From a virus (lineage: Duplodnaviria > Heunggongvirae > Uroviricota > Caudoviricetes): a DNA stretch of 4,042 nucleotides. Made by a program: the position numbers. Shown here piece by piece: positions 1 to 3,000 of this stretch (the stretch's first letter is position 1; every line of letters begins with the position of its first letter). The stretch is taken from IMG/VR virus record IMGVR_UViG_2671180656_000001; one strand, 5' to 3'.

Positions 1-3000
1 TTTGGAAAGATGGTGAAGAAGGTGCTTATGCGATGGGTTATGAGGATGGGCGTGACAAAACGGTAATTGCAGTAATGAAAGCCATCAGGGCCGCAGGAAT
101 CAAAGAAAAGAATTTCGATTAAGCAAATATCACTTCAATAAATCGCTTTTAAGGCATCACAATCGCTCTGTAGCGAGGTAAACGCGTGCAAGGCATGCCA
201 ATAAGCAGCGAGAATGAAAAATGCGTCAGAATGCGTTTGAGGAGGTTTTAAGAAATGAGTACGATAGCTGAGCTTGTCAGGGCTAATTTTCGTGAAGAGT
301 TGGTGCGTTGGTATCGGTATCGTTCATCGTCCAGTTTGCCGCTTGATGAGTTGTATGAGCATTCACCTGCCGCACGACGCTATCCGCGTGACCGTGTTCT
401 TCGACGGTTGTTCAAACTCAACAATGAGTTTCAGCGCAACAGAATTATCCGGAGTCTGGATTTAAAGTGAAGGAGTGAGCATGAGCGACCTATCATTAAC
501 CCAGCCAAAGCTAAAAGAATGTCCGTTTTGCGGCGGTAATGCTCGTCTGTGGGTTGAGGCCGGAATAAATATTGATGTGTGGGGCTATGCAGAATGTGAC
601 CTCTGTGAAGCCAGGGTGGCATGGGCACCATCAGTTGCTGCGGCTACTGAAAAATGGAACCGGAGAGCAGGAGATGAAGCAAACCTTTCTGCTTCGCAAC
701 GAAGCAATCAGAAATAACGCCATAGACGCCATTCTCTCACTACCCATCGACGACAAGTCACCCCACGAAGTCCACGTTAAAGAACCCAAGCGCAGCAAAG
801 CGCAGAATGACCGTATGTGGCCGATGCTGAACGATGTTTCGCGTCAGGTGCTATGGCATGGTCAACGGCTGGCGCCGGAAGACTGGAAAGACCTGTTCAC
901 TGCCCTGTGGCTTAAGACCAAAAAACTGGAGCAACGAAGTGTGCCTGGTATCGACGGTGGCGTTGTCATGCTTGGCGTGCGTACCAGCAAAATGCGAAAG
1001 GCCAGCATGACTGAGCTTATCGAAATCATGTTCTGGTTCGGCTCAGAGCGCAACGTGCGGTGGAGTGATGACTCCCGGCGAGAGTATGAATGGTCACAAC
1101 GAAAAGGTAGGGCTGCATGACTATCAAATCAAATACGCCAGCACACGACAAGGACTGCTGGCAAACGCCGCTCTGGCTTTTTGATGCGCTGGATATTGAG
1201 TTTGGATTCTGGCTGGATTCAGCTGCGAGCGACAAAAACGCTCTGTGCGCTCACTGGCTAACTGAGGCTGACGACGCGCTAAATTCTGAGTGGATAAGCC
1301 ACGGTGCAATCTGGAATAACCCACCGTACAGCAATATCAGGCCGTGGGTGGAAAAAGCCGCTGAGCAGTGCATACAACAGCGACAGACGGTAGTTATGCT
1401 TGTGCCAGAGGATATGTCAGTCGGATGGTTCAGCAAGGCTCTGGAGAGTGTTGACGAAGTTCGCATCATCACTGATGGACGGATTAATTTTATCGAACCA
1501 TCGACAGGGCTGGAGAAGAAGGGAAACAGCAAAGGCTCCATGCTGCTGATTTGGCGACCGTTCATCAGTCCTCGACGGATGTTTACTACCGTATCCAAAG
1601 CGGCATTGATGGCGATCGGGCTGGGCGTCAGGAGGGCTGCATGAGGCGACAGCGACGAAGTATCACCGACATCATCTGCGAAAACTGCAAATACCTTCCA
1701 ACGAAACGCTCCAGAAATAAACGCAAGCCAATCCCAAAAGAATCTGACGTAAAAACCTTCAATTACACGGCTCACCTGTGGGATATCCGGTGGCTAAGAC
1801 ATCGTGCGAGGAAAACAAGGTGATTGACGTGATGATTTATTCGGGGCTATATTCCTCAAACGCCAGCAAAATCTGGCGTCGGGATTGGCGTCCTGGATAG
1901 AGACCGCGACAGATACACGCCGCGAGCGTGTTTTTTATTGTCGTATGCACGCGCACATCTGAATTATGGTGGGCTGTGTGGGGGCGGAGAGATCCGCGCC
2001 GGTCGGTTTCCCGGTTACGCCAACCCTGCACAGTTCACCACCAGACGATTGGCGTCGTCGGTGGTGAGTTATTAAGAAACCACCAGAGGGCGTCATTATG
2101 ACAACTCAAATTTCTGTTGAAACTCTCTCCCCGATCACCCATAACCAGATTCCTGTTATTACCACCGAACTTTTGGCGCAGCTTTACGGCACTGAGCCGG
2201 TGCGTATTCGCCAGAATCATCATGAGAACAAAGTACGCTTCGTTGAAGGGAAACACTTTTTCAAAGTTGTTGGTAATGACCTTAAAGAATTGCGGGTAGC
2301 TTTAAACTACTCACAAAATTTGCGGGTTACTTTAAGTAACTCACAAAATTTGCAAGTGTTCGAAAAACTGGAAGACTGCTATTTCAGCCAGTGCGAGAAA
2401 AATACTGGCAAACAAGAGAAGAAGCTCAACGGGCTTTCCGCAAAAGAAACAGACAGCCTTGTATGGCTGTGGGATTATGCCAACCGCTCACAGGCATTGT
2501 TCCGTGAGTTGTATCCCGCATTAAAACTGATTCAGTCTGGCTATTCCGGCATATGCCACGACTACGGCTATGAGTTCTCGTATATCATCGGGAGGGCGAG
2601 GGGCGTTTTAATTAATCACACGCGGGATATAGATATTTATGAGCCTGACGGGCCGACGAACCTTCTGGCATGGGAAAGGCTTAAGAACAAAGAGTTGCCG
2701 CCTTCACTGCATCGCTACTGACAATTGACAACTTAACAAACCCAGCTTCGGCTGGGTTTTTTATTGCTGAATTTTCAATGTGAGAGGACATGACAATGAA
2801 TGAGCTGATAAATAGCAATGCCATCAAAATGACAAGCATTGAAATCGCTGAGTTGGTGGGAAGCCAACACGGTAATGTCAGAATATCAATAGAACGTCTG
2901 GCAAAGCGTGGGGTGATTCAACTTCCTTCAATGCAAAAAGTTGAAAATAAACAAACAATTAGCCCTAACAAATTCACAAGCGTGTATATATTCGAAGGCG

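Follow-up and report, generated by a model that had tools for sequence, protein, structure and literature searches.

An inverted repeat upstream of a lambdoid prophage antirepressor gene: a probable RNA hairpin of a C4/IsrK-type antisense cassette

Known C4 and IsrK systems and the cassette of the window

In phages P1 and P7, the antisense RNA C4 is reportedly cut from the very transcript that carries its target and pairs there with two sites, a2 and b2, and variation in the a and b sequences is said to define specificity, as in the heteroimmunity of P1 versus P7. Here we analyse a 4042-nucleotide (nt) stretch of DNA from a virus of the class Caudoviricetes (IMG/VR record IMGVR_UViG_2671180656_000001), hereafter the window, in which an extended inverted repeat lies immediately upstream of a gene for an ORF6N-domain antirepressor-type protein. 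The intergenic region that holds the repeat (1824–2097) is an RNA cassette like phage P1 immI and Salmonella IsrK, and the repeat itself is very probably an RNA hairpin of this P1-immI-type (C4/IsrK) antisense cassette, which would control the antirepressor gene of a lambdoid (Stx-type) prophage.

The P1 record annotates sites a1 and b1, a 77-nt C4 RNA, a2 (3 nt after the end of C4) and b2 (at the icd ribosome-binding site), and sequence analysis shows that in P1 the a sites pair with the C4 junction and the b sites with the C4 hairpin loop. Binding of C4 represses translation of the first gene and thereby prevents synthesis of the antirepressor (PMC2864571 supplement). The window resembles P1/P7 immI (c4–icd–ant) in the order of its elements on one strand, namely promoter, a1, b1, C4, a2 directly after C4, b2 near the ribosome-binding site and the antirepressor operon, as well as in the placement of b' in the C4 hairpin loop and of a' in the junction. 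P1 also shares the complementarity of the arms around a2 (CCTGCCACC and GGTAGCAGG, 8 of 9 pairs), with four positions compensatory relative to the window. Unlike P1, the window has its cassette in a lambdoid nin region, between ninE and ninG; its first downstream gene is of the ORF6N/P22_AR_C antirepressor type rather than icd, its b2 adjoins rather than overlaps the Shine–Dalgarno sequence and its a and b sequences are unrelated to those of P1. We know of no C1-type operator at this locus, in contrast to P1.

The locus is almost the same as isrK–orf45 (STnc1160)–anrP of the Salmonella prophage Gifsy-1 (Hershko-Shalev et al., 2016; PMC4825925), with near-identical architecture and high sequence similarity, and both that locus and the C4/a2–b2 system of P1 and P7 are already known. 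Gifsy-1 shares the promoter, IsrK, C4 (69 bits with the Rfam model), the a2 hairpin (CACCACC...GGTGGTGA) and the ORF6N-type antirepressor; its isrK is preceded by the same arrangement of −35 and −10 elements, and the Rfam isrK model begins at 1860 in the window. The published structures A and B of Gifsy-1 correspond to a1:a' pairing and to folded C4, respectively (PMC4825925). In contrast to our analysis, the Gifsy-1 paper treats the C4 region as a coding open reading frame (ORF), orf45, and folds only nt 1–180, and its model is without the 3' arm of the hairpin and without a2 and b2 (PMC4825925). The Rfam C4 model matches in full, with 69 bits, at the orf45/STnc1160 region (34131–34214 of the Gifsy-1 sequence L014, minus strand), where the 5' strand of the C4 closing helix contains the start codon of orf45. 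The correspondence of the published orf45 to a C4 RNA is a minor novelty of this work; recognition of the window's cassette as one of the C4/IsrK type connects work on Salmonella IsrK with the classical P1 c4 system. Two other minor novelties are the cassette itself, which is unannotated in these Stx-type prophages, and an a2 hairpin with an arm borrowed from C4 that is conserved and covaries across about 90 loci and in P1.

The features of the cassette and of the downstream genes are listed in Table 1. The cassette consists, in this order, of a promoter, an IsrK-like small RNA with decoy sites a1 and b1 and a terminator, the C4 antisense RNA and the antirepressor leader. The trio of isrK, c4-a1b1 and C4 is also found in 13 diverged phage loci, where it precedes antirepressor-type or other genes, as well as in Gifsy-1 and P1. 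The loop of the a2 hairpin is identical to that of the upstream a1 hairpin. The a1:a' duplex has a predicted energy of −15.5 kcal/mol and the duplex of b2 with the C4 loop (2001–2010) one of −12.1 kcal/mol. In the window b2 ends 1 base before the Shine–Dalgarno sequence, abutting it without covering it, whereas in most homologues the two overlap.

Table 1. Features of the RNA cassette and of the genes downstream of it (window coordinates).
Feature	Positions	Strand	Basis or remarks
Promoter-like site	1824–1853	+	−35 TTGACG 1824–1829, −10 TATATT 1848–1853; 10/12 matches; start near 1860
c4-a1b1	1847–1899	+	Rfam RF03163, 45.9 bits, just under gathering score of 46.7
IsrK-like small RNA (a1/b1 'decoy' module)	1860–1936	+	Rfam isrK RF01394, 74.7 bits versus gathering score of 50
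Site a1, UUGGCGU	1885–1891	+	in loop of hairpin 1880–1895; complementary to C4
Site b1, GAGACCG	1900–1906	+	complementary to C4
Intrinsic terminator of IsrK-like RNA	stem 1915–1931, then U run	+	terminator scan
C4 antisense RNA	1962–2045	+	Rfam RF01695, full-length, 66.7 bits versus gathering score of 45, E = 6e-12
Predicted mature C4	~1968–2042	+	homology with annotated 77-nt P1 C4 RNA
C4 closing helix (helix P1)	1967–1983 with 2024–2040	+	
C4 b', CGGUUUC	2004–2010	+	hairpin loop
C4 a', ACGCCAA	2017–2023	+	junction
tRNA-like tail ACC(A) of C4	2040–2043	+	
Hairpin 5' arm	2035–2042	+	last 8 nt of predicted mature C4: 3' strand of closing-helix base plus CC tail
Inner stem GACGA/UCGUC and apical loop carrying a2	2044–2059	+	inverted repeat
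Site a2, UUGGCGU	2049–2055	+	exact complement of a' ACGCCAA 2017–2023; starts 7 nt after predicted C4 end
Hairpin 3' arm, GGUGGUGA	2060–2067	+	covaries with C4 3' strand; alternative partner ACCACC 2079–2084 plus Shine–Dalgarno
Site b2	2076–2084	+	GAAACC, extendable to GAAACCACC; target of C4 loop b'
Shine–Dalgarno AGAGGG / start codon ATG of antirepressor gene	2085–2090 / 2098–2100	+	
Putatively regulated gene, 207-aa antirepressor-type protein	2098–2721	+	Pfam ORF6N 1.3e-13, P22_AR_C 1.1e-23; homologues annotated antA / antirepressor
Terminator after 207-aa gene	2738–2759		terminator scan
Second antirepressor-type gene, Rha N-terminal and ANT/KilAC domains	2790–3518	+	Pfam ANT 7.9e-32

Conservation and covariation of the hairpin

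The initial annotation had described the repeat as CACCACC (2036–2042) and GGTGGTG (2060–2066), separated by 17 nt and ending 19 nt before the Shine–Dalgarno sequence, with a nested GACG/CGTC dyad. The sequence bears out all of this; the perfect outer repeat extends 1 base further on each side, to 8 nt, and the dyad in full comprises 5 base pairs (bp), so that the order is TCACCACC (2035–2042), A, GACGA (2044–2048), TTGGCG, TCGTC (2055–2059) and GGTGGTGA (2060–2067), with A2043 bulged between the outer stem and the nested dyad. Taken by itself, the bare 8-nt repeat is unremarkable: the window contains 4 perfect 8-nt inverted repeats with spacers of 3–30 nt versus 1.7 ± 1.6 in dinucleotide shuffles, which is weakly above chance and not significant. 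RNA 2030–2103 is predicted to fold into exactly this hairpin at −26.8 kcal/mol (z = −3.3; 2 of 200 shuffles are equal). We judged the repeat to be real because it is conserved, with compensatory changes, across about 90 homologous loci.

These loci were collected with a pattern that specified the inner core of C4 only and left the arms and the a and b sites unconstrained. Scanning one genome per species gave 120 loci, and the addition of phage loci resulted in a set of 112 unique instances of C4 in which the closing helix, as judged by duplex folding, measures 14 bp or more. The loci come from Enterobacterales, Cellvibrionaceae, Salinisphaera, Andreprevotia and others, and 18 of 18 that were checked passed the Rfam C4 threshold. 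Counts were made on MAFFT alignments built without structure information, A1 and a short alignment, A2, that includes the inner stem. The C4 structure covaries in these loci, all selected beforehand for a closing helix of that length: over 27 pairs, 97.6% of the cells are paired and 18 pairs show double-sided changes.

The a and b sites follow their C4 RNAs. Within 45 nt downstream of C4, an a2 site with a 7/7 match to the complement of its own a' was found in 92 of the 112 loci, versus 2.8% with a non-cognate a', and this correspondence extends over 26 different a' sequences; a1 is also present upstream in 81 of 91 loci. For b2, complements of the cognate loop average 9.3 nt versus 6.2 nt for non-cognate loops, and the site ends a median of 9 nt before the start codon. 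Comparison of the loci shows that a', a1 and a2 covary three ways, as do b', b1 and b2.

The arms that surround a2 show the same behaviour. The last 12 nt of C4 and the 20 nt after a2 form cognate duplexes with a mean energy of −14.6 kcal/mol, as against −10.8 kcal/mol for non-cognate pairs (5' arm differing at three or more positions) and −6.6 kcal/mol for shuffled partners. There are 44 distinct 5' arms, each with a matching 3' arm, for example CCGCCUCCAUGA / UCAUGGAGGCGG, GCUGCCACC / GGUGGUAGC and, in P1, CCUGCCACC / GGUAGCAGG. Of the cells in the 8 pairs of the outer stem, 89–90% form standard pairs, with changes on both sides at 5–6 of the 8 pairs, and the inner helix has double-sided changes at all five of its pairs. 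On A1, the number of cells with double-sided changes was 81, compared with 18 ± 8 in shuffles (0 of 500 reached 81; the sequences are related and shuffle counts are not probabilities). Covariation between the arms amounted to 0.33 (A1) and 0.43 (A2), versus no more than 0.12 with slid partners. When the hairpin segment was folded alone, it formed a single hairpin in 93 of 93 loci, with the apical loop inside a2 in 90 of them. The pairing is kept through compensatory and G·U changes across about 90 diverged loci, P1 included, which is the comparison by which the initial annotation had proposed to judge the repeat.

Probable control of the antirepressor gene and alternative explanations

One suggestion of the initial annotation was a hairpin in the 5' leader RNA that couples the ORF6N gene to a regulator. 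It was right in kind, and the pairing is conserved; its 5' arm, though, is the 3' end of C4 and not part of the leader. The regulator we assign is the antisense RNA C4, encoded 20–100 nt upstream on the same strand. Transcription from ~1860 would yield a short IsrK-like RNA ending at the terminator (1915–1936), and read-through transcripts would continue through C4 (~1968–2042) into the antirepressor leader. By homology with P1 and P7, RNase P would excise C4 from the transcript, its junction a' would pair with the loop-displayed a2 and its loop b' with b2, which adjoins the Shine–Dalgarno sequence; this pairing would block ribosome binding on the antirepressor mRNA, leaving the prophage repressor unchallenged. 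The particular a and b sequences would set the 'immunity type'. The outer stem would hold a2 in the loop and, since it uses C4's own 3' strand, would prevent the a2 hairpin from existing at the same time as the base of the closing helix. The a1/b1 RNA, which could compete for C4, may act as such a competitor, a role that has been proposed in P1, or may inhibit in cis, as in structure A of Gifsy-1. We infer both C4 processing and translational repression at this locus; repression of the antirepressor is taken as the function of C4 because the window has every sequence feature of the P1/P7 circuit, and excision by RNase P to ~77 nt is suggested by the ACC(A) tail (2040–2043) and by homology to the annotated ends of the P1 RNA.

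Genetic data from Gifsy-1 bear on this model. The mutations C159U and C162U raise anrP translation from 4 to 484–926 units, that is, more than 100-fold (PMC4825925). Both map to positions of a' in the Gifsy-1 C4, and the a' genetics fit C4 as a repressor. Antirepressors can flip prophages from lysogeny to lytic growth, and in Stx-type prophages lytic growth drives toxin production; assignment of the locus to the C4/IsrK type provides an explanation for the probable silencing of the antirepressor gene and predicts cross-talk or specificity between co-resident prophages through the a/b 'immunity types'; 26 variants of a' were seen.

Presentation of a short complementary element in a hairpin loop for fast pairing is likewise found in CopT/CopA and FinP/traJ, and the CI RNA of satellite phage P4 (seqA/seqC) is similar in being a processed RNA that acts on sites up- and downstream of itself in the transcript, although P4 CI works via transcription termination and not via translation. 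Unlike the loop-displayed targets of these three systems, the target hairpin described here borrows its 5' arm from the closing helix of the antisense RNA.

Several points weigh against C4 repression with a loop-displayed a2. The ends of C4, its cleavage by RNase P and the repression itself are all taken from P1 or Gifsy-1. The b'–b2 pairing is short in the window (6 contiguous bp, or 9 with a bulge) and adjoins the Shine–Dalgarno sequence rather than covering it. Because excision of C4 removes the 5' arm, formation of the full hairpin is confined to unprocessed RNA; after processing, only the inner 5-bp stem would be left to display a2, and the processed leader of the window is predicted to pair a2 and the 3' arm with the Shine–Dalgarno region. 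In Gifsy-1, the a1 mutations G28A and G31A raise expression, contrary to what a model of a1 as a pure decoy predicts (PMC4825925). As for the alignments, the ends of the aligned segments had been set using the predicted 3' arm, which may have helped MAFFT to place the arms, and RNAalifold predicted no pairs and no consensus on the short alignment A2. A few shifted rows (L017, L072, L085 and L129) probably account for this null result by disrupting the consensus; in counts made on the same alignment, the named structure was clearly supported.

Since the 5' arm belongs to C4, formation of the full hairpin costs the last 6 bp of the C4 closing helix, and the predicted energies of the competing duplexes are −12.1 kcal/mol for the C4 3' strand with the C4 5' strand, −15.7 kcal/mol for the C4 3' strand with the 3' arm and −13.3 kcal/mol for the 3' arm with ACCACC/Shine–Dalgarno. 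It is conceivable, if rather doubtful, that the hairpin is mainly one state of a conserved three-way RNA switch acting in cis and not a means of displaying a2. The final 8 nt of C4, comprising the closing-helix base and the ACC tail, would then pair either with the C4 5' strand, giving an intact closing helix, an RNase P substrate and hence mature repressor, or with GGUGGUGA of the leader, and GGUGGUGA when free of C4 would pair with ACCACC/Shine–Dalgarno (2079–2090), next to or over the ribosome-binding site. The overlap of the helices is indeed kept in essentially every locus with a2, although any sequence could serve as a 5' arm, and the hairpin covers the ACC tail, a feature of RNase P substrates. 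The C4 and hairpin states are nearly equal in predicted energy, with a median difference in free energy of −1.4 kcal/mol over 93 loci and 57% of them within ±3 kcal/mol. The window gives three different predicted folds depending on the extent of the transcript: 1955–2110 forms full C4 with the 3' arm and a2 paired to the Shine–Dalgarno region, 1860–2115 has a1 paired with a', an unfolded C4 and the a2 hairpin, and the processed leader (2043–2115) forms a hairpin that sequesters the Shine–Dalgarno sequence (−23 kcal/mol, z = −3.0). The segment 1964–2071 is predicted to form a shortened closing helix and the hairpin. According to Weinberg et al., there are cases in which a downstream hairpin shares sequence with the 3' half of the closing helix, for which they proposed a role in cis (PMC2864571 supplement). 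The energies, however, all come from predictions, and the Gifsy-1 conformer in which a1 unfolds C4 in cis is translationally silent, which misfits a switch where a formed hairpin leaves the Shine–Dalgarno sequence free and translation on. Moreover, the 3' arm shows only a modest enrichment over shuffled arms in its pairing with the leader that follows it (0.61 versus 0.44), for which reason we rejected the 3' arm as a general sequestrator of the Shine–Dalgarno sequence in the processed leader, and the ACCACC partner is specific to the sub-lineage of the window. If true, such a switch would couple the folding and processing of an antisense RNA allosterically, in cis, to translation of its own target and would allow an RNA-only reinterpretation of the published mechanism of IsrK/orf45 activation. 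The borrowing of an arm from the antisense RNA's own closing helix is a modestly new detail that makes a cis switch between processing and translation directly testable.

The remaining explanations fare less well. Translational coupling of orf45 and anrP in Gifsy-1, where orf45 overlaps the anrP start and mutation of its start codon or an inserted stop lowers activation (PMC4825925), would lead one to expect that ribosomes on a small upstream ORF unwind the hairpin. The window does contain such an ORF, of 33 codons, from an ATG at 1966 to a TGA at 2065–2067, but its stop codon, unlike that of orf45 in Gifsy-1, falls within the 3' arm and is separated from the antirepressor ATG by 30 nt, and what covaries in this region is RNA structure. 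In 86 C4 loci the length of the ORF varies between 3 and 199 codons; 49 of these 86 ORFs terminate upstream of the 3' arm, not one has its end at the downstream start, and in 7 loci the AUG is missing; a conserved orf45-like ORF is accordingly rejected as a general feature, and melting of the hairpin by ribosomes seems unlikely. An intrinsic terminator or attenuator that halts transcription before the antirepressor gene when the C4 closing helix is unformed appears decidedly unlikely as well. The stem is GC-rich, and in some homologues the 3' arm is followed by a U run, as in GGTGGTGGAAGTTTTT (L011 and L013) and GGTGGTGGTTTTC (L020); such cases were scored as predicted terminators by Weinberg et al. 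(PMC2864571 supplement). In the window, however, the tail (GUUAUUAAG) is without a U run and the terminator scan does not report the hairpin, at least five T in the 9 nt after the arm occur in only 7 of 93 loci, and the tails average 40% A and 30% T against a background of 27% T. In the absence of a U-rich tail, a general intrinsic terminator was rejected for the window and most homologues, while some lineages do resemble terminators. Finally, the initial annotation had offered a dimeric protein-binding site as the other reading of the repeat. Its dyad symmetry is all that speaks for such an operator, to which hardly any credence can be given: the arm sequences are free to change as long as they stay complementary, as the 44 different 5' arms attest, G·U pairs occur in them, which on the other strand are A·C mismatches, the 5' arm is already explained as a part of C4 and the promoter scan found no promoter-like site at 2035–2067.

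The window also contains a 9-nt direct repeat, ACCACCAGA, at 2037–2045 (the 3' end of C4) and at 2079–2087, where it runs into the Shine–Dalgarno sequence. Both copies are complementary to GGUGGU of the 3' arm, and the duplication gives rise to the alternative, Shine–Dalgarno-sequestering hairpin in the sub-lineage of the window and, in part, in L005 and L006.

Gene neighbourhood and diversity of C4 loci

The window is a lambdoid nin region, and its segment 1780–2160 shares 99.7% identity with the Stx phages Nil2 and 2851. Matches to parts of the window occur in 2560 of 5426 complete Escherichia coli genomes, and in 376 at least 80% of the window is matched. The best of these genome matches align to the window in 2–3 pieces and span ~110 to 1400 bases more than the window, which suggests insertions or deletions somewhere within it. 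The genes are arranged in the order ninB-like, DNA methylase, ninE (ending at 1823), a gap of 275 nt, the ORF6N + P22_AR_C gene, a terminator, a Rha/ANT-type gene and ninG. The second antirepressor-type gene, which lies 3' of the terminator, may be part of one unit with the first or separate from it. A literature search for a characterized Stx-phage antirepressor at this locus found nothing specific.

Within the antirepressor gene, between the regions for the ORF6N and P22_AR_C domains, there are tandem 30-nt repeats, AAGAATTGCGGGTAGCTTTAAACTACTCAC, at 2285–2357, the copies of which are 77% identical, plus a third degenerate unit. Two C4 loci have Rfam sRNA-Xcc1 matches (L001 2321–2404 and L005 2511–2601; 76 and 69 bits) 3' of the cassette, either inside the first gene that follows or immediately behind it. 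Gifsy-1 carries isrJ at the corresponding place, where the window has only a plain terminator (2738–2759).

C4 RNAs also occur in other arrangements. One class of loci (L021, L022, L032, L038, L040, L044, L051, L055, L060, L067, L070, L076, L079, L083, L084, L120 and L126), from Xenorhabdus, Photorhabdus, Pectobacterium and Brenneria, has neither an a2 site nor the downstream hairpin and lies ~35 nt upstream of a small Ner/Nlp-like gene (motif ...DWHxADIIAAL...); Rfam C4 scores were 67–79 bits in the four members that were checked. In total, 19 loci lack a2, and 17 of the 18 with enough upstream sequence have an a1-type complement upstream. The target and the mode of action of C4 in this class may be different. 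On some contigs, two C4 cassettes with different a' and b' specificities lie no more than 8 kb apart (L024 and L078; L044, with two Rfam C4 matches), a finding compatible with the coexistence of several 'immunity types' in a single element or in adjacent ones.

Structured RNAs such as the type II hammerhead ribozyme, STAXI, EFASI, int-alpA RNAs and ryfA are typical of prophage or island neighbourhoods. Examples of these five kinds were found near C4 loci (L098 3382–3444; L021 46–183 and 540–678; L017 2005–2072; L072 4926–4993; L009 164–462), and the presence of STAXI near C4 had already been noted by Weinberg et al. (PMC2864571 supplement).

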